From the NCBI GenBank assembly GCA_934180065.1, contig CAKPRA010000004.1, forward strand, positions 4,786 to 68,785: a stretch of DNA of 64,000 bases. Reading direction: 5' to 3'. The notes beneath the pieces were generated by a model. It ran no database searches. It saw only the letters and a list, made by a program, of their open reading frames with translations, and was not told the origin of the DNA. Origin of the DNA: an uncultured Clostridia bacterium (GTDB lineage: Bacteria > Bacillota > Clostridia > TANB77 > CAG-508). Every line of letters starts with the position of its first letter. Position 1 is the first letter of the stretch. This document shows, piece by piece, positions 3,332-62,625 of the stretch. The position numbers were made by a program, and so were the translations under genes.

Positions 3332-3504
3332 ATGAAAAAGAAAAATTTTTTAATAGTTTTATCAATGATAATGTTATCGTTGATTTTATTTGGAAGTGTA
3401 GTAGATGCTGATAAAAAACAGCCAGCTAATTTATCGATTTCTGTTAATTCAACTGCAGTAAAAAAAGGTGACGAAGTAGAACTTAGTATTAGTGGAACAA
3501 ATAT
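3332..3504 (+). pseudogene. 5' fragment of a secreted Ig-like-domain protein, truncated by a REP pair
   Basis: A signal peptide is followed by NLSISVNSTAVKKGDEVELSISG. The ORF then reads into the REP (MGTELFDSF) and stops at 3556. Confidence 0.45.
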
Positions 3505-3587
3505 GTCAATGGGGACGGAGCTTTTTGACAGCTTTGGACATTTTAAAGCTGTTTAAAAGTTGTCAAAGAGAATCGTCCCCATTGACT
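3505..3587. repeat. inverted REP pair (BIME-like hairpin)
   Basis: gtcaatggggacggagctttttgacagc ... ttgtcaaagagaatcgtccccattgac. The two halves are reverse complements. Confidence 0.85.
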
Positions 3588-4664: not shown

Positions 4665-4738
4665 TGTCAAAGAGAACCGTCCCCATTGACAAACTTGTCA
4701 AAGAGAACCGTCCCCATTGACTGCCCATTGACCGCCAT
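4665..4738 (-). repeat. two tandem REP-like elements in reverse orientation plus a CCATTGAC mini-array
   Basis: ttgtcaaagagaaccgtccccattgac occurs twice (4665-4690 and 4695-4721). It is followed by tgcccattgaccgccattg. Confidence 0.85.
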
Positions 4739-4741
4739 TGC

Positions 4742-6953: not shown

Positions 6954-9900
6954 ATGGCAGACGTTAAGTGGACAAATGAACAAAAAGATGCAATATTTGA
7001 CAAAGGTTCAAACATATTAGTAGCAGCAGCTGCTGGAAGTGGTAAAACTGCGGTATTAGTAGAGCGTATTATTAACAAGGTTATAAATGAAAATGTTGAT
7101 ATAGATAAAATTCTAGTAGTTACTTTTACAAATGCTGCAGCAAGTGAAATGAGAGAGCGTATACTAGAAGCTATTTATAAAAAAATGGAAGAGCTTCCTG
7201 ATAATAAAAACTTACAAAAACAAGTTATTTTAATTAATAAAGCAAGCATTTGTACAATAGATTCATTTTGCTTAGATGTTATAAGAAACAACTTTTTTGA
7301 AATAGATGTATCTGCAAATTTCAGAGTAGCAGATACAACCGAAATAGAGCTATTAAAACAAGAAGTGATTGATGATATTTTTGAGGAAAAATATATATCA
7401 AATGATAAAAAATTCTTAAAATTAATAAACACATATACAACATACAGAGATGATGAACCCCTAAAAGAGCTGTTATTGAATATTTTTCGATATATCCAAA
7501 GCAACCCATTTCCAAATCAATGGCTTCATGAAAAAATTGAAATGTTTAATTTAAATAAATCTGATGATTTTTCAAATACTTTATGGGGAAAGATTTTATT
7601 AGAAAATTTAAACCAAGAGCTTTCAGATTATGTTATAAATTTAAAGAAAATAGAGCGTGATTTAGCAAGATTTGAAGAGCTAGAAAAATACAGATTAGTA
7701 ATTAGTGAAGATATAATAAATTTAGAATATGTGCAAGAAAATCTTGGCTCATGGGACAATGCCTATGAAAAAGCTTCAAATATAAAATGGACAAATTGGC
7801 CAAAAGATTCAAAAATTACATTAGAGCTAAAAGAAACAGCAAAAAGCTTAAGAGATTCTATAAAAAATAAATACAAAAAAACTATTTCTAAAGTTTTATT
7901 ATATAATTCTAAAGAGGCTAATGAAAACATTTATAATATGTATGAAATATTAAAAGATGTAGAAACATTGGTATTAGAGTTCTCAGAGCAGTTTGCTTTA
8001 AGAAAAAAAGAAAAAAATATGGTAGATTTTAATGATATAGAGCATTTTGCGTTAAATATTTTAGTAAAAAGAAATGATGATGGAACAATTGAAGAAACCG
8101 ATATTGCTAAAAAATATAAGGAAAAATTTACCGAAATAGCAATAGATGAATATCAAGACAGTAACTATGTGCAGGAATATATATTAACAAGTGTATCTAA
8201 AGGAAATAATGTTTTCATGGTAGGGGACGTAAAACAAAGTATTTATAAATTTAGACAAGCATGTCCAGATTTGTTTTTAGAGAAATATAATAAATATAAT
8301 CTGAAAAATGAAAATATAGTTAATGGTCAAAAAATTCAATTGTTTAAGAATTTCAGAAGTAGGTCAAATATTTTAGATGTTACAAATATAATATTTGAAA
8401 ATATTATGAGCGAAAAACTTGGAGATATAAAATATGATAAAACCGAATTTTTAAATTTAGGTGCAGATTATAAAGAACCATCAGATTCTGAAATAAAAAA
8501 TTTTGCAGGGAAAACTGAGCTTCATGTAATTGATTTAAAAGAGCCGGAAATTAATGTTTTTAAAGACATTCAAGAAGATGAAGAGGAAGAAGATAATTCT
8601 AATCAAGAAAGAATAGAAGATGTTGTATTAGAAGCAAGGTTTGTTGCTAGAGAAATCAAAAAATTAATTGATAGTGACTATATGGTTTTTGATAAAAAAA
8701 CAAAAGAATATAGACACATTACATACAAAGATATAGCCCTTTTGTTAAGAGCAACATCAGTAACAGCTCCTATATATGAAAATGAAATAGCTAAATTGAA
8801 TATGCCAGTTTTTAGTGATGTATCTTCTGAATATCTTGAATCAATGGAAATTCAGACCATAATGGCAACATTAAAAATCATAGATAATCCAATGCAAGAC
8901 ATTCCACTTGTAACAGTTTTAAGGTCTGTAATTGGAGGGTTTACAGATAATGAATTAGTAAAGATTCGTTTAAAAAATAAAAAGCAATCATTTTATAAAT
9001 CACTAGAAGAATATGATGGTGATGATAATTTAAAATCAAAGATTGATGTTTTTTTACTTAGTATAAAAAAGTGGCAAGAGCAAGAAAAATACATGGCTCT
9101 TGATGAGCTTATTTGGCAAATATATATAGATACACAATTTTATAATTATGTAACATTAATGCCAAATGGAGCATTAAGACAAGCTAATTTGAAAATGCTT
9201 TTTGAAAGAGCAAAACAGTATGAAAGCGCTAGTTTTAAAGGGTTATTTAATTTTATAAGTTTTATAGATAAACTTCATACAAGCAGTGGTGACCTATCCT
9301 CTGCAAAATTAATTGGAGAAAATGAAAATGTAATTAGAATAATGAGTATTCATAAAAGTAAAGGTCTAGAATTTCCAGTTGTCTACTTATGTGGAACAGG
9401 AAAACAGTTTAATATGCAAGATTTAAATAAAAATATTTTATTACATCAAGATTTGGGAATAGGACCTAAATATATAAATAACGAGAGAAACATTGAGTAT
9501 AATACTTTGGCAAAAGAAGCCATAAAAATACAAACAAAATTAGAATCTTTATCTGAAGAAATGAGAGTATTATATGTGGCTCTAACAAGAGCAAAAGAAA
9601 AGCTTATAATAACAGGAATTTGTAAGGATGCAGATAAATCATTTAAGGAAAAGCAAGACTTAATTAGCACTTATAAAGCTGTATCAAATAACAATGAAAT
9701 AAGTGCATCAATTATAAAACAATATAAAACATATTTGGATTGGATTACATTAGTTTATTTTAATAATATAAATATTATAAAAGATTATATAGATTTAGAA
9801 ATACATAAAAAAACTGATTTAATAAAAGAATTTGAAAAAAGTAAAGAGCAAGTTCTAGAGCGTGATATTTTCAAAGAGCTTAAACAAAAATCTAAAAATG

Positions 9901-10703
9901 TAAAAAGTGAAGATATTGAACAATTGAAAGATAAAATATTGTGGTCATATAAATATGCAGACTCTGTTGAGATTCCAACTAAGACATCTGTTACAAAAAT
10001 AAAGGAGCTTTCAAATGAAGAAAATATTGTAAGTATAGAAGAGCTAGAGGAACAGAAAGAATTCAAAAAGGAAATGGCAAAACCTAAATTTTTAAATGAA
10101 GAAGAGAAACTTTCAGCAGCACAAAAAGGTACATTAATGCATTTATGTTTTCAAAGGCTTGATCATACTAGAGATTATACAAAAGCACAGATACAGGACT
10201 TTGTGCAAGATTTGGTAAATAGAAATATAATAACAAAATTAGAAGCAGATAGCATTAATATAAATAAGCTTTTTGATTATACTAATTCAAGCTTATGGAA
10301 AGAGCTTAAATTGGCTAAGAAAGTTTATAAAGAGCAACCATTTTATATTAATTTAAAATCAAAAGATATTTATAATAATAATTCAAATGAAAATATTCTA
10401 GTTCAAGGAATTATAGATTTATATTATATAAATAAAAATGATGAAATAATTTTAGTTGATTATAAAACTGATTGGATTGAAGAAGGAGAAGAGCTTAAGC
10501 TGGTTGAGAAATATGCCAAACAGCTAGAAATATATAAAAATGCATTAGAGCAAGCATTAGGTAAAAAAGTAAACAAAAAATATATTTATTCTGTGTCAAT
10601 GGGGACGGTTCTCCTTGACACGTCTTGTCAAAAAGTGTCAATAGGGACGGTTCTCCCTGACACGTCTTGTCAAAAAGAACCGTCCCCATTGACCGCCAAT
10701 TGA
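6954..10703 (+). CDS. addA: ATP-dependent helicase/nuclease subunit A (AddA/RexA-like: UvrD helicase plus C-terminal PD-(D/E)XK nuclease). The C-terminal 35 aa are encoded by REP repeats
   Basis: The Walker A motif is GSGKTAVLVERI and the UvrD motifs are present. The nuclease motif is IDLYY...VDYKTD. The tail VSMGTVLLDTSCQK... is a translated REP. Confidence 0.8.
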   Translation: MADVKWTNEQKDAIFDKGSNILVAAAAGSGKTAVLVERIINKVINENVDIDKILVVTFTNAAASEMRERILEAIYKKMEELPDNKNLQKQVILINKASICTIDSFCLDVIRNNFFEIDVSANFRVADTTEIELLKQEVIDDIFEEKYISNDKKFLKLINTYTTYRDDEPLKELLLNIFRYIQSNPFPNQWLHEKIEMFNLNKSDDFSNTLWGKILLENLNQELSDYVINLKKIERDLARFEELEKYRLVISEDIINLEYVQENLGSWDNAYEKASNIKWTNWPKDSKITLELKETAKSLRDSIKNKYKKTISKVLLYNSKEANENIYNMYEILKDVETLVLEFSEQFALRKKEKNMVDFNDIEHFALNILVKRNDDGTIEETDIAKKYKEKFTEIAIDEYQDSNYVQEYILTSVSKGNNVFMVGDVKQSIYKFRQACPDLFLEKYNKYNLKNENIVNGQKIQLFKNFRSRSNILDVTNIIFENIMSEKLGDIKYDKTEFLNLGADYKEPSDSEIKNFAGKTELHVIDLKEPEINVFKDIQEDEEEEDNSNQERIEDVVLEARFVAREIKKLIDSDYMVFDKKTKEYRHITYKDIALLLRATSVTAPIYENEIAKLNMPVFSDVSSEYLESMEIQTIMATLKIIDNPMQDIPLVTVLRSVIGGFTDNELVKIRLKNKKQSFYKSLEEYDGDDNLKSKIDVFLLSIKKWQEQEKYMALDELIWQIYIDTQFYNYVTLMPNGALRQANLKMLFERAKQYESASFKGLFNFISFIDKLHTSSGDLSSAKLIGENENVIRIMSIHKSKGLEFPVVYLCGTGKQFNMQDLNKNILLHQDLGIGPKYINNERNIEYNTLAKEAIKIQTKLESLSEEMRVLYVALTRAKEKLIITGICKDADKSFKEKQDLISTYKAVSNNNEISASIIKQYKTYLDWITLVYFNNINIIKDYIDLEIHKKTDLIKEFEKSKEQVLERDIFKELKQKSKNVKSEDIEQLKDKILWSYKYADSVEIPTKTSVTKIKELSNEENIVSIEELEEQKEFKKEMAKPKFLNEEEKLSAAQKGTLMHLCFQRLDHTRDYTKAQIQDFVQDLVNRNIITKLEADSININKLFDYTNSSLWKELKLAKKVYKEQPFYINLKSKDIYNNNSNENILVQGIIDLYYINKNDEIILVDYKTDWIEEGEELKLVEKYAKQLEIYKNALEQALGKKVNKKYIYSVSMGTVLLDTSCQKVSIGTVLPDTSCQKEPSPLTAN

Positions 10704-10730
10704 CCACCAATTGACCGGCCAGATTGACAC
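10595..10730. repeat. REP cluster: two direct copies, one inverted copy, then a CCAATTGAC array
   Basis: gtcaatggggacggttctccttgaca, then gtcaatagggacggttctccctgaca, then ttgtcaaaaagaaccgtccccattgac. These are followed by cgccaattgaccaccaattgaccggccagattgacac with a period of about 10-11 bp. Confidence 0.85.
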
Positions 10731-16879: not shown

Positions 16880-16897
16880 GAAAAGAAAAAGGAAAAA

Positions 16898-17073
16898 GGA
16901 AAAGGGGACGGTTCTCTTTTCCCAGATTTGGGAAATAGGGACACAGTCCAAAGCAAATGAGATACGCTTTTTTTCTGTAAAGGGAGAAATAGGGACAGTC
17001 TAGATTAAATGAAATACGCTTTTTTTGGCAAAATGGAGAAAGAAAATGGAAAAGAGAGCCGTCCCCTTTTCCC
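16898..17073. repeat. 176-bp MITE-like element whose terminal inverted repeats carry the REP core
   Basis: The left end is ggaaaaggggacggttctcttttccc and the right end is ggaaaagagagccgtccccttttccc, which is its reverse complement. An internal direct repeat reads aaatga(g/a)atacgcttttttt. Confidence 0.8.
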
Positions 17074-17097
17074 TTTTTGGAGGTTTTGTTATTCAAT

Positions 17098-42696: not shown

Positions 42697-43056
42697 AAAA
42701 AATTGAGCTTCCATAAAATCAAAATTATGGTAGCTCTTTTTATATGTTAAATAAAGTAATAAGATTATAACACATAAAGAGAATAAATAATGTTCAGGAT
42801 AGTTTGATTGAATTTAGTGAAAACATATATTAAATGTTTAACTTTAACATGAGATGTATTTAAATCCGCTATATTCTACTTTTCCATTTTTAACTTGTAA
42901 AACTTATGTTTAAAATAAAAACAATGGTCAAAGCCATGCCGGTTGCTGAGATAAAAAGGTTGAAATAAATTCTGTTTTATAAATCATATCATTGATTTTG
43001 TAATCTTTTTAAGATATAATATCCGAATAAAATATAAGATACAGAAAGGGAATGAG

Positions 43057-47444: not shown

Positions 47445-48308
47445 ATGAAGAGAAAATTTATACTAATAATAAGTGTAATAATAATTCTAATTATATCTGT
47501 ATGTGTTTTATTATTAAATAAAAGCAAAGAAGTTGCAAAAAATAGTGATGAAATATATATAAACGTTGAAAATGAGTTTATGGCTGAAAATACTAATAAT
47601 GTTACAAATAATATAATATCAGAAAAAAATGAAGAAAAAACGATTAGTACTGCAAGTAATGAGCAAAAAGTAGATAAAAATGTTAATCAAAATAACGTTG
47701 ATGTAAATAAAAAAGTAGAAAAAACAGAAAATAAAAATCAAACAAGCTCAAACAGCAATATTAGTAAAGAAAATAATGCACCAACTGGTAAAACTACATA
47801 TTATATCAAGGTAAATTATGGAGCTAATGCAGTTACTATATACAAAAAAGATGAAAACGGTTATTACACAGTTCCAGTAAAGGCAATGATTTGTTCATGT
47901 GGAACTGCAACACCGAAAAGTGGTGTTTATAAAACATCTAAGGGATATGAATGGGGAACTTTAGAAGGAGGAACATATGGTAGGTATTCTACTAGAATAA
48001 AGGGTGGCATTTTATTTCACTCTGTTCCATATGTGTCAGAAAGTGAGGATTCATTAGAATATTGGGAATATGATAAATTAGGAACGACAGCATCTTTAGG
48101 TTGTGTTAGACTTGCAGTGGCTGATTCAAAATGGATATTTGATAATTGTGAAGTTGGAACTCAAGTCGAGTTTTATTCAGATACAAATCCAGGACCACTA
48201 GGAAAACCAACTGCCCAAAAAATATCTGATAATGAGAAATGTAGAAATTGGGATCCAACAGATACTTCTCCAAATAGCCCATGGGTCAATGGGGACGGTT
48301 CTCTTTGA
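47445..48308 (+). CDS. L,D-transpeptidase (YkuD domain). The last 8 codons are encoded by a REP
   Basis: HSVPY....SLGCVRL catalytic motif. The tail WVNGDGSL comes from gggtcaatggggacggttctctttga. Confidence 0.75.
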   Translation: MKRKFILIISVIIILIISVCVLLLNKSKEVAKNSDEIYINVENEFMAENTNNVTNNIISEKNEEKTISTASNEQKVDKNVNQNNVDVNKKVEKTENKNQTSSNSNISKENNAPTGKTTYYIKVNYGANAVTIYKKDENGYYTVPVKAMICSCGTATPKSGVYKTSKGYEWGTLEGGTYGRYSTRIKGGILFHSVPYVSESEDSLEYWEYDKLGTTASLGCVRLAVADSKWIFDNCEVGTQVEFYSDTNPGPLGKPTAQKISDNEKCRNWDPTDTSPNSPWVNGDGSL

Positions 48309-48311
48309 CAA
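48285..48311 (+). repeat. REP-like element
   Basis: gtcaatggggacggttctctttgacaa. Confidence 0.85.
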
Positions 48312-48574
48312 CCACAAAAAAATACAGAATTTTTCTGTATTTTTTTTGCATGAAACGGAACATAAACAGTTGACACACTGAAAGTTATTTTGGAATTATG
48401 GAAAGTAAGTAAAAGGAAAAAAATAAGGAAGAAACGGGAAAGTGTTGAAGCAATTGACAATATTGAATTGGGAAAAATTACATAATTGTACTTGACATAA
48501 TTATTGATAATATGCTATACTTTATTCAGATGTTTCGAAAGAAACATACTTTGTACTAAGGAGGTCGAAAGACC

Positions 48575-48853: not shown

Positions 48854-48880
48854 GTCAATGGGGACGGTTCTCTTTGACAA
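48854..48880 (+). repeat. REP-like element
   Basis: gtcaatggggacggttctctttgacaa. Identical to the copy at 48285. Confidence 0.85.
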
Positions 48881-49199
48881 CAATAAAAAAACTACAGAAT
48901 TTTCCTGTATTTTTTTGTTGCATGGAACAAAACATAAACAGTTGACGCACTGAAGATTATTTCCTTATTATGGAAAGTAAATAAAAAGAAAAGATGAAGG
49001 AAGAAACAGATACGGTTCTTGCAAGTGTTTGCAAGGAACCTTAAATCACTTAATAAATAAAAGAGTTGAAGCAATTGACTTTGAGCGATTAGAAGGAAAG
49101 TGCATAAAATTACTTGACATATACACAGTAAATGGTGATAGAATTATGATATATCAAACTGAAATGGTGCAATAAAATTTTATGAGGAGAATATAAATC

Positions 49200-50279
49200 A
49201 TGGAAAGTTTAAAGGAATATAGACCTAGTATAATTAATAAACTAAAATTATTTCTAAGCAGAATTGAACAAAGAAAAACAATTGAAAAAAATTTAGATAA
49301 ATTAGATATCAGTTTATTTTCTTCCAATAATATTGATTATATAATACAAAATAAAGAAAAATTTAAAAGTACAAGTGGTATGCCAGATCCACAAAAAGAA
49401 ATTATGACTATTGAAGATAAACTTGGAATAGTAATGGACTTTTTCAATGATTTAAATTCTAGTTTAGGGAAAAAAGTTAAAGATACATATTTAAAATATA
49501 AAACGCAAATTTATTTTGATGAGTGCAGTGATAAAAATAAAGAAATTGGTGATGGTTTCACTAGCGGACATAATAGAAGTACATCCATTATGTGTGGCGA
49601 TGGTATTGAAAGACCAAATCTTATAGCAAGAATTTGTACCAATAAAAATAATGCACTAGATATATATAATATAGCTCACGAATTCACACATATATTGCTA
49701 AACGAAAATACTAAAGAAAAAAACATTAGTGCTGAAAACCAAGAAATTGCAACTAGATTTACAGAAATCTTGTTGGGCGAATATATGGAAAAAAGAAAAA
49801 TTATCACAACAGAAGACAAAGAAAATCACAACATATGTATATCAGGCGAAATAGATAAAGCATATCAGCTCAATGAATATAGAATTTTAAGAAACCTAAT
49901 TAAAAACAATGGAAATAAATTTGATAAGAAATTAGAAAAAACATGTATTTCTAAATATTGCAAAGGAAATAAAAACTGGTATTACCAAATATTATCAAAC
50001 ATAGCATATAGATTAGAAAGAACCGGCAAAGTAGACGGTTTTCAAAATTACTTAAGATTTGTTAATTCAGCAGCAGAATGTGATAAATTAAAACAAGCAT
50101 ATATTGAAAATCCCGATTTAATAAAAAAAGCTTTTTCTCAATGTTTAATGAGTCAGCATAGTATTACGTACAATGATGTAGTGAAAAAGAGGTCAATGGG
50201 GACGGTTCTTTTTGACACAAAAAACATTGACGTTTTACAGCAAGTAAAGAAAAAAGATACATACGAAATTACTCATTAA
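49200..50279 (+). CDS. hypothetical protein with an HExxH motif (putative zinc metallopeptidase). An in-frame REP insertion lies near the C-terminus
   Basis: HEFTH motif. A REP at 50192-50219 is translated as RSMGTVLFDT. Confidence 0.45.
   Translation: MESLKEYRPSIINKLKLFLSRIEQRKTIEKNLDKLDISLFSSNNIDYIIQNKEKFKSTSGMPDPQKEIMTIEDKLGIVMDFFNDLNSSLGKKVKDTYLKYKTQIYFDECSDKNKEIGDGFTSGHNRSTSIMCGDGIERPNLIARICTNKNNALDIYNIAHEFTHILLNENTKEKNISAENQEIATRFTEILLGEYMEKRKIITTEDKENHNICISGEIDKAYQLNEYRILRNLIKNNGNKFDKKLEKTCISKYCKGNKNWYYQILSNIAYRLERTGKVDGFQNYLRFVNSAAECDKLKQAYIENPDLIKKAFSQCLMSQHSITYNDVVKKRSMGTVLFDTKNIDVLQQVKKKDTYEITH
50192..50219 (+). repeat. REP-like element inside a coding sequence
   Basis: gtcaatggggacggttctttttgacaca. 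Confidence 0.85.
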
Positions 50280-50994: not shown

Positions 50995-51033
50995 GTCAAT
51001 AGGTGTCAATAGGGGACGGTTCTTTTTGACACA
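50995..51033 (+). repeat. REP-like element (partial copy plus full copy)
   Basis: gtcaataggtgtcaataggggacggttctttttgacaca. Confidence 0.8.
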
Positions 51034-51061
51034 AAAACATTGCCATTTTTACATCAAAAAT

Positions 51062-51322
51062 AAAGAAAAAGCTAAATACATACGTAAAAATTCAACCTAA
51101 AAGCTATTGTATATCCTTCTGATTGTTTCTCTTCCTATATTTAATTCTTTTGAAATTCATGGATGAAGCACCAATTTTTTTATACCTCGCTTTCAGTTTT
51201 TTTACATAGCGCTCTGAAAAATTCAACCTGTTTGCTGCAACTTTGATAGTCATAGTTCCAGTAATACAACTTTGTATTACTGCTTTTTTTAATTCTTCTT
51301 TTTTATTCATAACAGTTCTCAT
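51062..51322 (-). pseudogene. remnant of a REP-associated tyrosine transposase copy (3' end duplicated from 52131-52230 but frameshifted), with an HTH N-terminal part
   Basis: DNA 51066-51160 is about 95% identical to 52136-52230, which is the 3' end of the RAYT gene plus downstream sequence. The reading frame differs. An HTH-like segment VAANRLNFSERYVKKLKARY is present. Confidence 0.5.
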
Positions 51323-51526: not shown

Positions 51527-52003
51527 ATGGAGTATGGAAGAATCATGCATACTTTAGAATGTGACACTTTAACACCAGAGAAACTTCTTGAAGCCATCTT
51601 AAAAATGGTAAGAGAAAGTTACTTTCTTGTAAAAAAAGCCATCGAGGCAATTCCCGATAAGGAAATAGAAAACTTCTTGAATGAAGCTTTTCTTATTTCA
51701 AGAATTAGAGTTAATTTCTTTGAAAGAAATGTGTACTTTGAGGATTGTTTTACAAAAGAGCACATTTTTTCTTTTACACCAACAGAAAAAGATTTTTTCG
51801 AAGGAAATGCGTTCATTAAGATTGAGGTACTTCCTCTTAGAAAGGCAATTGAAATATGCTACGAAGACCTTGAATTCTCAGATTCATACATCCGAGAGAT
51901 GTTCGAAAATTTGGATTTCAAAGCGTATTTCGGTAAGTATTTTATCGGAGAAAATCTGGCAACAAGCGATATAATCGTCTCTGAGGAGTTCTTTGCTAAT
52001 TAA
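51527..52003 (+). CDS. hypothetical protein
   Basis: 158-aa ORF with an RBS (caggagg). A terminator lies at about 52038-52072. Confidence 0.4.
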   Translation: MEYGRIMHTLECDTLTPEKLLEAILKMVRESYFLVKKAIEAIPDKEIENFLNEAFLISRIRVNFFERNVYFEDCFTKEHIFSFTPTEKDFFEGNAFIKIEVLPLRKAIEICYEDLEFSDSYIREMFENLDFKAYFGKYFIGENLATSDIIVSEEFFAN

Positions 52004-52077
52004 TTAAAACCTACTGTCATCTACAGAAAAAGGTTGCAAAAAAAGTCCCTCTCATTTGGGGACTTTTTTGTTGCTCT

Positions 52078-52105
52078 GTCAATGGGGACGGTTCTTTTTG
52101 ACACA
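52078..52105 (+). repeat. REP-like element flanking the 3' side of the RAYT gene
   Basis: gtcaatggggacggttctttttgacaca. Confidence 0.85.
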
Positions 52106-52168
52106 AAAACATTGCCATTCTTACATCAAGAATAAATAAAAAGCTAAATACATACGTAAAAATTCAAC

Positions 52169-52873
52169 CTAAGAGCTATTGTATAGCCTTCTAATTGTTT
52201 CTCTTCCTATATTTAATTCTTTTGAAATATTTCTTAAAGAAATATGTTTTTTATCTTTCAATAATCTTATAAGATCCGATAAAATAATTTTATTATTTTT
52301 TAATTCTGAAGTATCTATATGATATTCCTCTAAAAATTTTCTAATAAAATCTTTGCACTCAGTATTATTATTTTTATCATCATCCACATCGATAAAGACA
52401 TATTCATCATCCAAATCTTTATTATTTAAATCCTTATTGAATTTTTTATAATTTGAATAAGGATAATCTTCGGCTTTTTGGCAAATACCAGCTTTTACAG
52501 GATTATTAAAGATATAATTTATGCAATTATATAAGTGTTTCTTACTGTAGATTCCTTCAGCCTTATATCTATCTCGAAAAACATAGCCTACTCTATTGTA
52601 TTTTTTATTATAGTACATACTATATCGTATGTTAAGACGTTGCATGTATTTGCTAAGATCTTTTAAACTATTGGATTCAATTAAAATATGTGTATGATTA
52701 TTCATAATACAATAAGCAATTATATTAATTTTATGTTCAGTAAGTAAATCATACATTATTTTTATATAATACTTAATATCTTGTGTTTCATCAAAAATAT
52801 AGCTTTTATTAATTCCTTGGGTAATAATATGAAAAAAAGATGTTTGAATAAAACTTCTTGGTTGTCTTGGCAT
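52169..52873 (-). mobile_element. REP-associated tyrosine transposase (RAYT, IS200/IS605 TnpA-like Y1 HUH enzyme) with a C-terminal HTH
   Basis: HuH motif HTHILIE. Catalytic Tyr region YIFNNPVKAG. The C-terminal part LRNISKELNIGRETIRRL is an HTH. The gene is bracketed by inverted REP copies at 52078-52105 and 52985-53013. Confidence 0.75.
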
Positions 52874-52984
52874 AAAATCTCCTAAATATTGTGAAATAAA
52901 ATTATATATATAATATCATAAGAATAATAAAAAAAATGTCGAAATGTGCTTTACTACATAATTTTTTGGAATTAATAGACAAAG

Positions 52985-53013
52985 TTGTCAAAAAGTTCCG
53001 TCCCCATTGACAT
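52985..53013 (-). repeat. REP-like element (reverse orientation) flanking the 5' side of the RAYT gene. It carries the TTGACA used as the ppdK -35
   Basis: ttgtcaaaaagttccgtccccattgacat. Confidence 0.85.
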
Positions 53014-53040
53014 ATTTTTTTGATTTTATGTTATAATAAT
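53006..53040 (+). promoter_or_regulatory. sigma-A-type promoter of ppdK (TTGACA-N18-TTATAAT), with the -35 contributed by the REP end
   Basis: ttgacatatttttttgattttatgttataat, followed by an RBS (aaggagg) and the ATG at 53083. Confidence 0.55.
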
Positions 53041-53082
53041 TACAAATTTACAAAAGAATATATTTAAGGAGGAAATAAACTT

Positions 53083-55707
53083 ATGAATAAAAAATATGTA
53101 TATCTTTTTAAAGAAGGTAATGCAAGTATGAAAGAGCTACTTGGCGGAAAAGGTGCCAATTTAGCTGAAATGACATCTTTAGGGATGCCAATACCTCAAG
53201 GTTTTACAATTACAACAGAGGCTTGTAACAAATATTATGATGATGATGAACAAATTTCTAAAGAAATTTTAGAGCAAATAGATTCTGCTCTTATATATTT
53301 GGAGGATCATACAGGTAAAAAGCTTGGAAGTAAAGAAAAACCTTTATTAGTATCTGTAAGATCAGGGGCTAGAGCTTCTATGCCGGGTATGATGGATACT
53401 GTTTTAAATTTAGGTATGAATGATGAAGTTGTTCAGACTTTTGCCGAGAAAAATAGAAGATTTGCTTTTGATAGTTATAGAAGATTTATACAAATGTATA
53501 GTGATGTTGTTAAGGAAATACCTAAAAAATTATTTGAAGATGCTATTGATACTAAAAAACAACAAAGAAATTTGAAATTAGATACTGATATGGATGCTAA
53601 TGACTTGGAAGATTTGGTAAAAGTATTTAAAGGGATTTATAGAGATTATCTACATGAAGAATTTCCACAAGATACTAAATTACAATTAATTGAATCTATT
53701 AAGGCTGTATTTAGATCTTGGAATAATCCAAGAGCAATCACATATAGAAAATTGAATGATATACCATCTGATTGGGGAACTGCTGTTAATATACAAGCGA
53801 TGGTATTTGGTAATATGGGAGAAGATTGTGGTACAGGTGTTGCTTTTTCTAGAAATCCAATTAATGGTAAAAAAGAGGTTTTTGGAGAATTTTTAATGAA
53901 TGCACAAGGTGAAGACGTTGTTGCTGGTATACGTACTCCTCAGTCTATTGATACTTTAAAATATATTAATAAACAAGCATATGATGAATTTGTTAAATTT
54001 GCTGATAGATTGGAAAAACATTATAAAGATATGCAAGATATGGAATTTACTATTGAGCATGGTAAATTATATATGTTACAAACAAGAAATGCTAAACGTA
54101 CAGCAGTTGCAGCTTTAAAAGTTGCTGTAGACTTAGTTTTAGAGGGAATGATTGATGAAAAAGAAGCTGTGCTAAGAGTTGAGCCAAACCAATTAGAGCA
54201 ATTGCTACACCCTAACTTTAATCAAGAAGCTCTTAAAAAGGCTAAACCTATAGCTAAAGGATTACCTGCATCTCCAGGTGCTGCTACAGGTAAAGTTGTT
54301 TTTACTGCAGATAAAGCTAAAGAGCTTAAAGAAGCGGGAGAAAAAGAGCTTGTATTGGTTAGACTTGAAACATCACCAGAAGATATTGAAGGTATGGTTG
54401 TTTGTAGTGGTGTTCTTACAGTTAGAGGTGGAATGACTTCTCATGCAGCAGTTGTTGCTCGTGGTATGGGAACTTGTTGTGTTGCTGGCTGTGGAGAGCT
54501 TATTGTTAATGAGGATGAAAAGGTATTTTATACTAAAGATGGTAAAGCATTCCACGAAGGTGATTATATTTCTTTAGATGGATCTAATGGTAATGTTTAT
54601 GGAGAAAGAATTGATACTGTAGATGCATCTATTTCAGGTGATTTTGCAACTCTAATGGGTTGGGCTGATAGTATAAGAAAATTGAAAGTTAGAGCTAATG
54701 CTGATAATGTTAGAGATGCTCAAAAAGCCTATAATTTTGGAGCTGAAGGTATAGGATTATGCAGAACAGAACACATGTTCTTTGAGCCAGATAGAATTGC
54801 AGCTATTAGAGAAATGATAGTATCTAAAACACATGAACAAAGAGCTTGTGCACTTTCAAAAATACTTCCTATGCAAAGAGCTGACTTTGAAGGTTTATAT
54901 AGATCTATGAGAGGATATCCAGTTGTAATAAGATTATTGGATCCACCTCTTCATGAGTTTTTACCACATGATGATGAGGAAATTAAAGCTTTATCACAAG
55001 ATATGGGATTAAGTTTTGATGAACTTAAAGATATTGTAACTGACTTACATGAGTTTAATCCTATGATGGGTCATAGAGGTTGTAGACTTGATGTAACATT
55101 CCCTGAAATCGCTGAAATGCAAACAAGAGCTATTATAGAAGCAGCTATTAATGTATATAAAGAAGGAGTAAAAATTGTTCCAGAAATAATGATTCCTTTA
55201 ATAGGTGATGAAAAAGAGCTTAAATTTGTTAAAAATATTATAGTAAAAACCGCTGACGAAATCATTGAGAAATCTAATATTGATTTGAAGTATCAAGTAG
55301 GAACAATGATTGAAATACCTAGAGCTTGTTTAATAGCAGATGAAATTGCAAAAGAAGCGGAATTCTTCTCTTTTGGTACAAATGATTTAACACAGTTAAC
55401 TTATGGATTTAGCCGTGATGATGCTGGAAAATTCTTAAAAACTTATTATGAGAAAAAGATTTTTGAAAGTGATCCATTCCAAAAAGTTGATCAAATTGGG
55501 GTTGGTAAACTTATGAAAATGGCAATAGAAGATGCTAAAAAAGTTAGACCTAATATAGAGCTTGGAATATGTGGAGAGCATGGAGGAAATCCACCAACTG
55601 TAGAATTTTGTCATAATATAGGATTAACATATGTATCATGTTCACCTTTCCGTGTGCCAATAGCACGTTTGGCAGCAGCACAAGCAGCAGTTAAATTTGA
55701 AAAATAA
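53083..55707 (+). CDS. ppdK: pyruvate, phosphate dikinase
   Basis: 874 aa. The phosphohistidine region GGMTSHAAVVARG and the PEP-utilising domains are present. Confidence 0.95.
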   Translation: MNKKYVYLFKEGNASMKELLGGKGANLAEMTSLGMPIPQGFTITTEACNKYYDDDEQISKEILEQIDSALIYLEDHTGKKLGSKEKPLLVSVRSGARASMPGMMDTVLNLGMNDEVVQTFAEKNRRFAFDSYRRFIQMYSDVVKEIPKKLFEDAIDTKKQQRNLKLDTDMDANDLEDLVKVFKGIYRDYLHEEFPQDTKLQLIESIKAVFRSWNNPRAITYRKLNDIPSDWGTAVNIQAMVFGNMGEDCGTGVAFSRNPINGKKEVFGEFLMNAQGEDVVAGIRTPQSIDTLKYINKQAYDEFVKFADRLEKHYKDMQDMEFTIEHGKLYMLQTRNAKRTAVAALKVAVDLVLEGMIDEKEAVLRVEPNQLEQLLHPNFNQEALKKAKPIAKGLPASPGAATGKVVFTADKAKELKEAGEKELVLVRLETSPEDIEGMVVCSGVLTVRGGMTSHAAVVARGMGTCCVAGCGELIVNEDEKVFYTKDGKAFHEGDYISLDGSNGNVYGERIDTVDASISGDFATLMGWADSIRKLKVRANADNVRDAQKAYNFGAEGIGLCRTEHMFFEPDRIAAIREMIVSKTHEQRACALSKILPMQRADFEGLYRSMRGYPVVIRLLDPPLHEFLPHDDEEIKALSQDMGLSFDELKDIVTDLHEFNPMMGHRGCRLDVTFPEIAEMQTRAIIEAAINVYKEGVKIVPEIMIPLIGDEKELKFVKNIIVKTADEIIEKSNIDLKYQVGTMIEIPRACLIADEIAKEAEFFSFGTNDLTQLTYGFSRDDAGKFLKTYYEKKIFESDPFQKVDQIGVGKLMKMAIEDAKKVRPNIELGICGEHGGNPPTVEFCHNIGLTYVSCSPFRVPIARLAAAQAAVKFEK

Positions 55708-55710
55708 GGG

Positions 55711-55920
55711 GAGAAAGAAGAGCAAAGAAGAAAAAAGAAAAGAAAGGAAAAGACGGAAAAAGGAAGAGAAAGAGGAGGGAAAGAGGAGGGAAAAGGGGAC
55801 GGTTCTCATTGACAACCTTAAAAAAAGGTTGTCAATGAGAACCGTCCCCTTTTCCCTCCTCTTTCCTCCTCTTTCTCCTTCTTCCGCTTTTCTCTTCCGC
55901 TCTTTCTTTCTTCTTTCTGG
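55711..55920. repeat. roughly 210-bp imperfect palindrome: polypurine arm, REP core, ttaaaaaaa, REP core (reverse complement), polypyrimidine arm
   Basis: ggaaaaggggacggttctcattgacaacc ttaaaaaaa ggttgtcaatgagaaccgtccccttttcc. The flanks are aag/agg repeats on the left and their reverse complement on the right. Confidence 0.9.
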
Positions 55921-56017
55921 CACCCTCCAATTTTCCCAAAAAGTTTCATCACCATTGACATATTTTTTTGAATTAAATATAGAATTAAATATAGAAAGGT
56001 TTGGTGATGATTTTATA

Positions 56018-57040
56018 ATGAATAAATATAGAGTTGCTTTAGTTGGAACTACAGGTGTAGTTGGCAGAATTACAAGAAAAGTTTTAGAAGAGCATAATTT
56101 ACCTATAAGTGAATATAAATTGTTTTCTTCAAGTAAATCAGCTGGCTCAAAAATTGTTTTTGATGGTAGAGAATATGTAGTGGAAGAATTAAACGAACAT
56201 TCTTTCGATAATAATAAATTTGATTATGCTATTTTTACAGCAGGAGGCAAAGTGTCCGAAAAATATGCACCTTTGGCAGCACAAAACAAATGTACGGTGA
56301 TTGATAATAGTAGTTTTTTTAGAATGAATAAAGATGTTCCATTAATAGTTCCTGAAGTAAATATTGATGATATAGATAATAATAATGGGATTATAGCAAA
56401 TCCAAATTGCTCTACAATACAAGCTGTTGTTGCTTTAAGTCCGTTAGATAAAAAATATAAAATAAAAAGAATTGTTTATTCTACATATCAGGCTGTTTCT
56501 GGAGCTGGTTTGGGTGGAATACAAGATTTAGAATCTGGAATTGAAAATTATGTAGGTAACACCAAACATGAATTAAAGAAATTTCCGTATGAGATATTTA
56601 ATAATTGTATACCTCAAATAGATGATTTTGTTGATGATAGATATACTAAAGAAGAGCATAAGATGATTAATGAAACAAGAAAAATACTAAAAAAATCAAA
56701 TTTACCTATTACAGCTACTACTGTTAGAGTTCCTGTTTTTAATTCACATGCAGAATCTATTAACATTGAGTTTGAGAAGGATTTTGAAATAAATGATTTA
56801 ATTGATACATTAAAATGTGCTCCTGGAATTGTTGTTAAAGATGATATAACTAATAACATATATCCTATGCAAATTGATACTAACAATCAAGATAAAGTTT
56901 TTGTAGGAAGAATAAGAAGAGATTATAGTGTGAAGTCTGGAATTAATTTATGGGTTGTTGCTGATAATACAAGAAAAGGTGCTGGAAGTAATGCTGTTCA
57001 GATATTAGAATATCTAGTTAATAGAAATAGTAAAAAGTAA
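56018..57040 (+). CDS. asd: aspartate-semialdehyde dehydrogenase
   Basis: MNKYRVALVGTTGVVG. The catalytic Cys lies in NPNCSTIQ. Confidence 0.9.
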   Translation: MNKYRVALVGTTGVVGRITRKVLEEHNLPISEYKLFSSSKSAGSKIVFDGREYVVEELNEHSFDNNKFDYAIFTAGGKVSEKYAPLAAQNKCTVIDNSSFFRMNKDVPLIVPEVNIDDIDNNNGIIANPNCSTIQAVVALSPLDKKYKIKRIVYSTYQAVSGAGLGGIQDLESGIENYVGNTKHELKKFPYEIFNNCIPQIDDFVDDRYTKEEHKMINETRKILKKSNLPITATTVRVPVFNSHAESINIEFEKDFEINDLIDTLKCAPGIVVKDDITNNIYPMQIDTNNQDKVFVGRIRRDYSVKSGINLWVVADNTRKGAGSNAVQILEYLVNRNSKK

Positions 57041-57208: not shown

Positions 57209-58084
57209 ATGAAGAAGATTATTTTTAAAGGATGTGGAACAGCTATTGCGACACCGTTTAATGAAAACGGAGTTAACTTTGAGGTTTTTAAACAGCTTAT
57301 TGATAATCAGATAAAAGAGGGAGTAGATAGTATTATTGTTTGTGGTACTACTGGAGAATCTGCTACAATGTCAGAAGCGGAAAGAAAAGATACTATTAAG
57401 TTTGTTGTTGATACTGTTAATAAAAGAGTTCCTGTTATAGCTGGTACGGGATCTAATAATACTAAATCAGCAATTGAAATGACTAAATATGCAGAGTCTA
57501 TCGGAGTAGATGGAGTATTAGTTGTAACTCCATATTACAATAAAGCTACTCAAAAAGGATTGATAGAGCATTTTACTAAAATTGCGAAAGAAACAACTTT
57601 ACCTATAATAATGTATAATGTTCCTGGTAGAACGGGAGTAAATATATTACCTGAAACATGTTATGAGTTATCAAAAATAGATAACATAGTTGCTATAAAA
57701 GAGGCTAGTGGTAATATATCTCAAGTTGCTAAGATTGCATCTTTATGTGGTGATGATTTAGCTATATATTCAGGTAATGATGACCAAATAATACCAGTAC
57801 TATCATTAGGTGGAATTGGAGTAATATCTGTGTTATCTAATATAAAACCTAAATTTACACATGATATGGTATATGATTTCTTTAATGGAGATGTAAAAGA
57901 AGCTTGTAAGAAACAATTGGATTCTATTGAGTTAATTGATTGCTTATTTTCTGAAGTAAATCCTATTCCTGTTAAATCTGCTTTAAATATATTAGGTTAT
58001 GATTATGGTATTCCAAGATTACCTTTGACTGAATTGAGTGAATCTAATAAAGATAAATTAAAAAAGACTATTTTTAAAATTTAA
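57209..58084 (+). CDS. dapA: 4-hydroxy-tetrahydrodipicolinate synthase
   Basis: GTTGES, YNVPGRTG, and a Schiff-base Lys region. Confidence 0.9.
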   Translation: MKKIIFKGCGTAIATPFNENGVNFEVFKQLIDNQIKEGVDSIIVCGTTGESATMSEAERKDTIKFVVDTVNKRVPVIAGTGSNNTKSAIEMTKYAESIGVDGVLVVTPYYNKATQKGLIEHFTKIAKETTLPIIMYNVPGRTGVNILPETCYELSKIDNIVAIKEASGNISQVAKIASLCGDDLAIYSGNDDQIIPVLSLGGIGVISVLSNIKPKFTHDMVYDFFNGDVKEACKKQLDSIELIDCLFSEVNPIPVKSALNILGYDYGIPRLPLTELSESNKDKLKKTIFKI

Positions 58085-58172: not shown

Positions 58173-58925
58173 ATGGTTAAAGTTCTTATAAATGGTTGTA
58201 ATGGTAAAATGGGACAAGAGCTTGCTAATCTTGTTAAAATTGATAATGATTGTGTTTTAGTTGGTGGATTGGATAAAGAGCAGACAGGAGAATTTACATT
58301 TCCTGTGTATACTGATTATAACAAGATTATAGAAGAAGCGGATGTTATTATTGATTTTTCTGTTCCAGTTGCTACAATGAATGTGCTAGAATATGCTAAA
58401 CAAAAACATATTCCAATAGTAATAGCAACAACTGGTTTTTCAAGTGAGCAAGAAGCGGAAATATTAAAATATAGTAAAGAAATACCTATTTTTAAATCTG
58501 CAAATATGTCTTTGGATATTAATTTAATGTGTAGAATAGTGGCAAATTTAGCACAAATTTTAAAAGGAAATGATATTGAGATAATTGAAACACATCACAA
58601 TCGAAAAATAGATAGCCCAAGTGGCACAGCTATGTTACTTGCTGATTCTATAAATAAAGCTTTGAATAATTCAATGTCATATGAATTTAATAGACATGAT
58701 AAACATGAAAAAAGATCTAAAAATGAAATTGGAATTAGCTCTGTTAGAGGTGGTAATATTGTAGGAGAGCATTCAGTAATATTCTTTAGCGAAAATGAAA
58801 GTTTTGAAATAAAACATACAGCATATTCAAGAAGCCTGTTCGCTGATGGAGCACTTAAAGCAGCTAAATTTATGGTCAATGGAAAGTTTTCTAATGGATT
58901 ATATGATATGAACGATATTTCTTGA
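58173..58925 (+). CDS. dapB: 4-hydroxy-tetrahydrodipicolinate reductase
   Basis: MVKVLINGCNGKMG Rossmann fold and the HHNRKIDSPSGTA signature. Confidence 0.9.
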   Translation: MVKVLINGCNGKMGQELANLVKIDNDCVLVGGLDKEQTGEFTFPVYTDYNKIIEEADVIIDFSVPVATMNVLEYAKQKHIPIVIATTGFSSEQEAEILKYSKEIPIFKSANMSLDINLMCRIVANLAQILKGNDIEIIETHHNRKIDSPSGTAMLLADSINKALNNSMSYEFNRHDKHEKRSKNEIGISSVRGGNIVGEHSVIFFSENESFEIKHTAYSRSLFADGALKAAKFMVNGKFSNGLYDMNDIS

Positions 58926-61247: not shown

Positions 61248-61564
61248 AATAGCCAAGATAAATAATTGATTTATATGGTAGATGAATATATATAGGAAAA
61301 TAAAAAAAGGCAGTAAATACTGTCTTTTTTTGCATACAAATTTTGTTTTATAATTTGGCACATGAACTATATTTTAAACAAAATAAATGTTATTAATGTT
61401 TGTTTTGGCTCTAAAAAGAGCTAGCTTTTATACTAGTCAAAGAAACATAACAAGTTGACGCCTCGGAGATTATTTTGAAGTTATGTAAATAATTTGAGAA
61501 AATGTCAAAATCCTATAAGCAAAATTAACATAAAATCATAGTATATAATGAAGGGGGAATAGAT

Positions 61565-62143: not shown

Positions 62144-62270
62144 AGATAAACATAACAAGTTGATGCCTTGGAGATTATTTTTAAAATATGTAAACTAATT
62201 TCTGCCAACATTCATGTTCTTATTTTTGTTACTATTTATTGTTATTTGTCTTTAGATAAATCGGATAAGA

Positions 62271-62625
62271 CTCCTAAGCTACACGTTAGTTTTTGTTCAA
62301 TTTTTTTTGGTCCGGAGATGTAGATATATATATTAAAATTCGTGACTTGCTGGTCGCCCATACAAAGTGGTGTGAGAATGGTAGTGCCCTCATTTAAATT
62401 GGGTGACATCATAAAAGCAACTAAATGCTCCCAAGCTGCACGTTAGTTTTTGTTCAATTTTTTTGGTCCGGAGATGTAGATATATATATTAAAATTTGTG
62501 ACTTGCTGGTCGCCCATACAAAGTAGTGTGAGAATGATAGTGCCCTCATTTAAATTGGGTGACATCATAAAAGCAACTAAATGCTCCCAAGCTGCGCGTC
62601 ACTTCTTTTTAATATATATATCTAC
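62271..62625. repeat. two direct copies of a roughly 158-bp unit, followed by a short inverted segment; GC is higher than the surroundings
   Basis: Unit 62281-62438 is about 97% identical to unit 62439-62594. It is followed by the reverse complement of ggagatgtagatatatatattaaaa at 62600-62625. Confidence 0.8.

Follow-up and report, generated by a model that had tools for sequence, protein, structure and literature searches.

The promoters of ppdK and asd in an uncultured gut Clostridia bacterium are probably older than the REP repeat beside them

Can a short mobile repeat provide -35 boxes to the genes that it lies next to? The question is raised by a stretch of 64,000 nucleotides (nt) from an uncultured Clostridia bacterium (contig CAKPRA010000004.1; hereafter the window, with a GC content of ~27%), in which copies of a REP (repetitive extragenic palindrome) are found upstream of two genes, ppdK for pyruvate, phosphate dikinase and asd for aspartate-semialdehyde dehydrogenase. 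An initial annotation had proposed that the TTGACA at the end of the repeat serves both genes as a -35 element, and that the repeat may be moving such elements around the genome. We arrived at a different reading, to which we assign a probability of roughly 0.6: both genes would use older promoters to which the REP adds at most an accessory, weak -35, the copy before asd would be a local duplicate of the region upstream of ppdK, and the repeat would belong to a REP/RAYT family (RAYT, REP-associated tyrosine transposase).

The elements at ppdK are as follows.

53083-55707, plus strand: ppdK, 874 amino acids (aa); match to TIGR01828 with 1392 bits (cut-off 843).
52984-53012, plus strand: intact REP, GTTGTCAAAAAGTTCCGTCCCCATTGACA, 70 nt upstream of ppdK; stem TGTCAA/TTGACA, loop of 15 nt.
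53007-53012, plus strand: TTGACA, candidate -35 of ppdK; it makes up the 3' half of the REP stem, and TATAAT follows after 19 nt.
53013-53031, plus strand: T-rich spacer of 19 nt, TATTTTTTTGATTTTATGT, kept in the REP-free loci L210, L212 and L102.
53027-53037, plus strand: extended -10 of ppdK, TATGtTATAAT (TRTGnTATAAT type), with the hexamer TATAAT at 53032-53037.

The form TATGtTATAAT is an extended -10 of the TRTGnTATAAT type known from Gram-positive promoters. Both hexamers given in the initial annotation are present, but its spacer of 18 nt runs to the 7-mer TTATAAT, whereas the canonical spacer has 19 nt. The ribosome-binding site (RBS) AAGGAGG lies at 53066-53072, with 28 nt between it and the end of the -10 and 53 nt between it and the end of TTGACA; the previously given distance of 45 nt to the RBS was inexact.

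What of this arrangement is found in related genomes? A protein search with PpdK gave three close groups, namely the same species (99-100% identity), a group at 89% and a very abundant group at 87%. Proteins identical to the PpdK of the window are encoded on human-gut metagenome contigs, Hadza samples among them. The closest species-representative genomes reach only 74-77% PpdK identity; these are labelled as metagenome-assembled genomes of uncultured Clostridia, and the REP is absent from them. The GC content of 27% had suggested Fusobacterium as the source, a guess that this genome scan rejected. We compared nine contigs of the same species (L001-L009), the loci L204, L186 and L102 from the 87% group, and L210, L211 and L212 from the 89% group. 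The repeat family was sampled from the window and 120 further contigs fetched by the pattern TGTCAAARAGAACCGTCCCCATTGAC, in total 923 kb.

Within the species, the intact REP before ppdK is invariant over the nine contigs, and the upstream regions of both ppdK and asd are identical in all of them, so that they offer no comparison between presence and absence of the REP. Two loci of the 87% group, L204 and L186, have a REP at the orthologous position and with the same left flank, 34 nt farther from the promoter, and their TTGACA and TATAAT are 53 nt apart. In L102, from the same group, there is no REP before ppdK, and the 3' end of the upstream gene reaches the promoter. In the three loci of the 89% group (23 kb sampled) no REP cores were found. 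The core promoter and 5' untranslated region (UTR) of ppdK, that is the T-run, TTTATGTTATAATAATTAC(G/A)AATTTAC(A/C)AAAGAATA and then AAGGAGGAAATAAAC, are conserved in L204, L186, L102 and the 89% group, and the extended -10 is identical across all four related lineages compared. Since this -10 is intact in relatives in which the REP is missing or distant, the REP is not needed for the promoter. The ppdK promoter thus appears to be ancestral, and in the relatives it would run on its extended -10, without a REP-derived -35.

The same comparison bears on the 12 nt that follow TTGACA in the window, ATATTTTTTTGA. Where the window reads TTGACATATTTTTTTGATTTTATGTTATAAT, L210 reads AAACATATTTTTTTTGTTTTTATGTTATAAT, and therefore these 12 nt are ancestral spacer DNA of ppdK and not an extension of the REP. 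An extended REP subfamily carrying this tail was considered and rejected, because the tail is on no other REP copy in the fetched loci and yet stands before ppdK genes that have no REP. As a separate observation, the 5' UTR at 53038-53065, AATTAC(A/G)AATTTAC(A/C)AAAGAATA, is nearly invariant in the four lineages (87-100% PpdK identity); the direct repeat TTACAAA/TTTACAAAA lies within it, and a regulator may bind there.

At asd we see the following elements.

56018-57040, plus strand: asd, 340 aa; match to NF011456 with 428 bits.
57209-58084, after asd: dapA (TIGR00674).
58173-58925, after dapA: dapB (TIGR00036).
55932-55960, plus strand: decayed REP copy, TTTTCCCAAAAAGTTTCATCACCATTGACA, left stem half and core mutated; it ends in TTGACA at 55955-55960.
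55952-55971, plus strand: 20-mer CCATTGACATATTTTTTTGA, REP end plus 12 nt of ppdK-type spacer, identical to 53004-53023.
55980-55985, plus strand: TAGAAT, candidate -10 of asd, 19 nt after TTGACA.

The decayed copy has lost its hairpin and folds no better than shuffled sequence. It has a rare AAAAAGTT variant in common with the ppdK REP, and the 20-mer occurs exactly twice, at 53004-53023 and 55952-55971 (0.06 matches expected from shuffles); among the loci examined it is confined to this species. The ppdK-type spacer is absent before asd in the relatives. Because the asd copy carries ancestral ppdK spacer DNA, we regard it as the product of a local copying or rearrangement of the region upstream of ppdK and not of REP transposition; most likely it derives from that region. 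The junction with native asd DNA, ...TTTGA|ATTAAATATAG, adjoins a 12-nt tandem duplication, GAATTAAATATA (55970-55981 and 55982-55993), and the TAGAAT of asd spans the junction between the two units. We infer that the copying probably took place when a rearrangement took out the genes that had separated ppdK from asd. We also considered whether the copy is the orthologue of the intact REP that a sister species has before asd; this is unlikely, since the AAAAAGTT variant and the ppdK spacer are shared with the ppdK copy instead.

Upstream of asd, too, the candidate -10 is found where the REP is not. In L212 a Mur-ligase gene and a glycosyltransferase gene, in this order, stand between ppdK and asd; TATAGAAT-ATATAGAAAGG is conserved upstream of asd, and neither a REP nor a recognisable -35 is found there. 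In the 87% group asd is not beside ppdK but is preceded by an unrelated gene and a terminator-like hairpin, with an intact REP upstream. The motif ATATAGAATTAAATATAGAAAGGTT(G/T)GGTGAT, which contains the TAGAAT of the window, is conserved before asd in this group, and the TTGACA of the REP lies 44-45 nt (L101, L150, L204) or ~89 nt (L121) upstream of the conserved TAGAAT; in L101, L150 and L204 a second TAGAAT is found 19-20 nt after the REP. The candidate asd -10 is thus conserved over three lineages while the position of the REP varies. The initial annotation was right that a plausible tagaat -10 stands before asd, and that a degenerate REP copy precedes it which shares an exact 20-mer with the ppdK site; its common extension is, on the other hand, ppdK spacer that no other REP carries, and the suggestion that the mobile repeat spreads -35 boxes does not hold at asd, whose copy brings ancestral ppdK promoter DNA with it. 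We also note that each of the three lineages has two copies of TATAGAA upstream of asd, 5 or 2 nt apart (55978-55996 in the window, 5620-5645 in L212); the pair could be a regulator-binding repeat instead of, or besides, a -10.

Next, we asked what the repeat itself is. It is ~28 nt long, (G)TTGTCAAAGAGAACCGTCCCCATTGAC(N), with 17 recognisable cores in the window, and the consensus of the family in the 923-kb sample is GTTGTCAAAAAGAACCGTCCCCATTGACA(A/C)CC; position 7 is A in 95% of 146 canonical copies. As single-stranded DNA it folds into a stem of ~7 bp, (AAG)TTGTCAA/TTGACAA(CTT), with the conserved core AGAGAACCGTCCCCA in a loop of 15 nt (z about -5), and the 3' half of the stem is TTGACA. 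The opposite strand ends in TTGACA too, so that a -35-like hexamer points outward from each side of each REP. That every REP ends in TTGACA, as had been stated, is true for the 7 of the 17 window cores that end in ATTGACA; the others end in ATTGACT (3), ATTGACC (3) or as a TTTTCC variant (4). In the larger sample, ATTGACA ends 145 of 220 unique core sites. In the variant REPs (at 16904, at 17059 and in the doublet 55787-55866, on its outer side) the stem is swapped for GGGAAAA/TTTTCCC and the loop is kept; TTTTCCC ends 12 sites in the wider set. What is conserved in the family is the pairing and the loop rather than TTGACA as such, and the hexamer would owe its presence to the hairpin, of whose stem it forms half, and not to a role in a promoter. 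The position profile over the sample shows no conservation past ~3 nt beyond the REP end and no -10 carried along with the repeat.

Inspection of the REP positions against the list of open reading frames (ORFs) shows that most REPs of the window are at gene 3' ends or between convergent genes. Head-to-head doublets, which resemble REPINs, are found at 55778-55866, 3503-3586 and 10593-10693. Three ORFs (47445-48308, 49200-50279 and 6954-10703) enter or cross REPs at their 3' ends, and the stop codon of the first is the TGA within the TTGACA of the REP. At 16896-17078, between convergent genes, the second REP subtype (GGGAAAA/TTTTCCC stem) lies within purine-rich and pyrimidine-rich flanks. After some REPs the REP end is reiterated in short tandem (10688-10730 and 4715-4740; CCATTGACC, CCAATTGACC, GCCATTGCC); related contigs have similar CCCATTGACA reiterations, which may be RAYT-related target or cleavage-site repeats.

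The gene immediately upstream of ppdK, and divergent from it, encodes the transposase to which the repeat would belong.

52169-52873, minus strand: RAYT gene, 234 aa, with a C-terminal tail resembling a helix-turn-helix (HTH).
52077-52103, minus strand: REP at the 3' flank of the RAYT gene, paired in inverted orientation with the REP at 52986-53012.
52915-52942, minus strand: candidate RAYT promoter, TCGACA-16-TATGAT, between the REP and the RAYT start; 10/12 in a consensus scan, a pattern match only.

The protein matches the NCBIfam model NF047646 (REP_Tyr_transpos) with E = 4.8e-22 and 78.4 bits, just below the cut-off of 80, and Pfam Y1_Tnp with 45.6 bits (cut-off 23), while the C-terminal match to HTH_11 is weak; phmmer found no sequence match in PDB at E <= 0.01. 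Its translation contains NNHTHIL, which we take to be the His-Thr-His form of the HUH motif, and YIFNNPVKAG; we assume that the two are the RAYT motifs, including the catalytic tyrosine. The inverted REP arms that enclose the ORF (52077-52103 and 52986-53012) measure 27 nt each, with a complementarity of 93%. Since they bracket the RAYT gene, the REP before ppdK is one arm of the RAYT unit. Two homologues with 60-63% identity (L213, L216) have the same inverted flanks of related REPs, which retain the TGTCAA...GGGGACGG and CCGTCCCCATTGACA features. The protein family is large, with 1530 homologues of 225-239 aa, and among the best 120 of these the sole source name is 'transposase [Clostridia bacterium]'.

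The surroundings of the RAYT gene show some further features. Between the RAYT start codon and the REP upstream of it, the window (52905-52945), L213 (1389-1483) and L216 (1437-1487) each have a palindromic segment with TGATATAAT, which is probably the gene's own extended -10 promoter or operator. A direct repeat of 145 nt (51012-51156 and 52084-52228, 96% identical) spans the REP and the 3' end of RAYT. Its upstream copy is carried by an ORF of 72 aa (51104-51322, minus strand) with HTH_28 and HTH_29 matches, a truncated RAYT remnant. The same-species contig L008 is without the ~1.07 kb between the 145-nt repeats, as recombination between them would give.

Does the spacing of REP ends and -10 elements agree with a working -35? 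TTGACA and the canonical -10 hexamer are 19 nt apart at both ppdK and asd, and for this reason neither site is reported by a consensus scan with 16-18 nt. Pairs outside REPs of TTGACA and a -10 that matches in 5 or more of the 6 positions, counted over the 923 kb, peak at a spacer of 17 nt (31 pairs, compared to 13 each at 18 and 19 nt, with a background of ~10). The sample has 245 independent TTGACA sites at REP ends; 1, 1, 5, 7 and 3 -10-like hexamers follow them at spacers of 16, 17, 18, 19 and 20 nt, with a background of 1.8 per spacer, and there is no excess at 16-18 nt (7 observed, 5.4 expected, p = 0.30). Enough flank was available for 219 REP ends, and 52 of them were classed as gene-proximal, that is, with a plausible gene start 25-160 nt downstream. 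A -10-like hexamer at a spacer of 16-20 nt follows 6/52 of the gene-proximal ends and 9/167 of the others. For many of the remaining gene-proximal ends, the stretch from the REP to the gene holds a full promoter-like pair by itself, such as TTGCAT-17-TATAAT (L132, L156) or TTGACT-17-TATAAT (L154). The proposal that REP ends give -35 boxes to ppdK and asd therefore stands in so far as a REP-end TTGACA does precede a conserved -10 at both genes; against it are the spacer of 19 nt, the dispensability of the REP in relatives and the lack of an excess at 16-18 nt in the family. That the REP supplies a -35 function is possible, though rather unlikely, and it would be neither required nor general.

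Taken together, this suggests the following course of events. The REP hairpin family would belong to the RAYT encoded at 52169-52873, with the ppdK REP as one of its two inverted flanks. Transcription of ppdK and asd would start from older promoters set by their conserved -10 elements, the extended TATGtTATAAT, which may do without a -35, and TAGAAT; relatives without a REP at these positions have both. As they are conserved across species, these -10 elements are probably real, and RNA polymerase would presumably use them. The REP of this species lies directly against the ancestral T-rich spacer of ppdK, which puts TTGACA 19 bp from the -10, 2 bp past the optimum, and at this distance the REP would act at most as an accessory, weak -35. 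Before asd we would have a duplicate of the ppdK upstream region that has since decayed; it probably remained from the local rearrangement by which asd came to lie directly behind ppdK.

Several observations weigh against this reading. The REP ends do show a small bump of -10-like hexamers at spacers of 18-19 nt (12 observed, 3.6 expected, p = 4e-4 raw; 9 observed and p = 0.012 once the three cases inside REP doublets are taken out). The same 20-mer is found twice at exactly 19 nt from a conserved -10, and the two -10 elements differ; with an inert TTGACA this would be an odd coincidence. When the asd copy is aligned with the ppdK copy, all 7 mismatches fall into the first 24 of the 44 positions and the last 20, that is TTGACA and spacer, are perfect, which resembles selective retention (p = 0.009 in a directional test, p = 0.07 when any run of 20 or more matches is counted). 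The TAGAAT of asd has no TG extension; it would be weak alone and would gain from a -35. In a sister species, a REP end forms TTGACA-18-TATAAT ~30 nt before an RBS and ATG. This is one locus on six contigs (L110, L115, L133, L142, L156 and L161; for example L115 1310-1390), with AAGAAGGAGGAACGGAAATG following ~24 nt on; it is the cleanest candidate for a REP-hybrid promoter in the family, and the gene that follows it was not found in the window. Finally, TTGACA-19-TAGAAT with a TG extension is also found outside the REPs, at 49114 before the gene at 49200, and spacers of 19 nt may thus be acceptable here.

Between ppdK and asd there is a further structure that has to be considered.

55707-55920, no strand assigned: hairpin of ~210 nt directly after the ppdK stop codon; one outer arm is purine-rich (GA), the other pyrimidine-rich (CT).

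Two REPs in the middle of it face each other head to head and pair perfectly (55778-55819 with 55825-55866, 42 nt, 100% complementary), and the RNA is predicted to fold with -141.4 kcal/mol (z = -13.3). Arm length differs between strains, the loop is inverted in L002, and several metagenome contigs break inside the hairpin. We found no T-run of the kind seen in intrinsic terminators, so it is not a classical intrinsic terminator; the predicted fold would probably block read-through or stabilise the 3' end of ppdK, which fits with asd having a promoter of its own. An Rfam scan of 52000-56200 gave no riboswitch or leader, only generic sub-threshold microRNA-precursor matches on the long hairpin. 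An open frame runs through the hairpin, and gene callers lengthen asd to 401-447 aa.

How do other explanations compare with the one we prefer? If the two promoters were hybrids, the REP-end TTGACA would be the -35 of both, paired over 19 bp with the resident -10 elements and kept by selection, and at asd it would have been recruited ready-made. This would account for the 6/6 match of TTGACA 19 nt from each of two -10 elements conserved across species, for the decay of the asd copy everywhere but in TTGACA and spacer, for the bump at 18-19 nt and for the TTGACA-18-TATAAT before a gene in the L110 cluster. It would also give a -35 to the asd -10, which has no TG extension and for which the REP-free relatives show no recognisable -35, and there are precedents in the outward-facing -35 hexamers of insertion sequence (IS) elements and in the promoters inside MITEs, miniature transposable elements with inverted repeats (PMC9330008, PMC10969869). 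However, the 19-nt spacer is off the 17-nt peak of the lineage, the ppdK promoter has an extended -10 and is retained in relatives with no REP or a distant one, only 6/52 of the gene-proximal REP ends have a -10-like hexamer at 16-20 nt, and the variant REP stem has no TTGACA at all; the strains of the species, being identical in these regions, provide no contrast. We thus consider hybrid promoters unlikely. A still more doubtful version goes further: the REP stem half may have been co-opted as a -35 over the long 19-bp spacer, and a module of ~44 nt (REP end and ppdK spacer) may then have been copied before asd as a chimeric promoter, which would make REP/RAYT systems portable donors of -35 elements outside Proteobacteria.

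The role of the repeats could, on the other hand, be structural or insulating only. The REPs and the ~210-nt hairpin would then act on the upstream transcripts (the ppdK mRNA and the RAYT unit) as 3' end or stability elements, their proximity to promoters would follow from insertion into intergenic DNA, and the 20-mer would be a recent short gene-conversion tract between copies 2.9 kb apart. The location of most window REPs at gene 3' ends or between convergent genes agrees with this, as does the hairpin of -141 kcal/mol that starts at the ppdK stop codon, and the literature ties REPs to termination and mRNA stabilisation (PMC3733652). The equal distance of both copies from a -10 is left unexplained, 20 nt is very short for a conversion tract, and the hairpin has no intrinsic-terminator T-run, so that we hold this explanation to be improbable. 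Older promoters with at most an accessory contribution of the REP remain the reading that we prefer.

A few other repeats of the window are recorded here. There is a direct repeat at 48308-48435 and 48880-49007, with a spacing of 572 nt. A 47-nt motif (AAACATAAACAGTTGACRC...TTATGGAAA) is present in four intergenic copies, also at 61443-61489 and 62148-62194, and matches no Rfam family. A unit of 156 nt is found in two tandem copies, 93% identical, at 62291-62602. Rfam gives a lone CRISPR-DR3 match at 42836-42865 on the minus strand (44.7 bits, gathering score 41, E = 0.022); no CRISPR array is evident around it, and the match is probably chance or an orphan repeat.

What do these observations mean in comparison with known systems? 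If TTGACA were a working -35, then a REP, and not an IS element or MITE, would be rewiring the transcription of ppdK and of asd-dapAB in an abundant uncultured gut bacterium, and half of a promoter would have been reused locally. As the evidence stands, it is more useful that a REP/RAYT system occurs in low-GC Clostridia, that the RAYT family is large, and that both promoters appear to be older than the repeat. The REP resembles the Correia elements (CREE) of Neisseria and promoter-bearing MITEs in being a small non-autonomous repeat upstream of genes with sigma-70-like promoter sequence (PMC10969869). Those, however, are complete and experimentally tested promoters, whereas the REP offers only a -35-like hexamer with no travelling -10; it does not hold a complete pair of -35 and -10 inside the repeat. 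With the hybrid promoters derived from IS1, IS2, IS256, IS257 and other IS elements it shares the end of a mobile element with a -35-like hexamer beside a resident -10 and before a host gene. The outward -35-like hexamer at the element end is present with 6/6 at both sites, but the resident -10 is not at 16-18 bp as in functional cases, the spacer being 19 bp (PMC9330008). In such promoters the spacer length is critical, and 1 bp can shift the activity ~20-fold (PMC9330008). Furthermore, unlike in the IS cases, the promoter resident at ppdK is already equipped with an extended -10.

The closest likeness is with the REP/RAYT systems of Proteobacteria (REPtrons and REPINs; the REP and TnpA-REP of E. 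coli, the REPINs of Pseudomonas). Here as there, intergenic DNA holds many copies of a short (20-40 nt) imperfect palindrome, often in head-to-head doublets that give long hairpins, most copies are at gene 3' ends, and a single HUH/Y1 transposase gene, whose product in the window matches Y1_Tnp above the cut-off, lies between two inverted copies. The differences are in the host, an uncultured low-GC (27%) gut Clostridia lineage, in the RAYT, which has a C-terminal HTH-like tail of ~90 aa, and in the stem half, which coincides with the sigma-70/sigma-A -35 consensus. Compared to known REPs, the stem is short (7 bp) and the loop is large and conserved (15 nt). In contrast to the GTAG and CGTC superfamilies of Di Nocera et al., there is no unpaired terminal GTAG or CGTC tag, and CGTC is inside the loop; in CGTC families the tetranucleotide is terminal and unpaired, the stem has 8-9 bp and the loop 4-5 nt (PMC3733652). 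That survey lists 8 phyla and does not mention Firmicutes or Clostridia (PMC3733652), and a literature search on RAYT in Firmicutes returned only unrelated word matches. Judged by its architecture, the repeat is thus a REP/RAYT system in the uncultured low-GC gut Clostridia, a group that the REP survey consulted (PMC3733652) leaves unmentioned.

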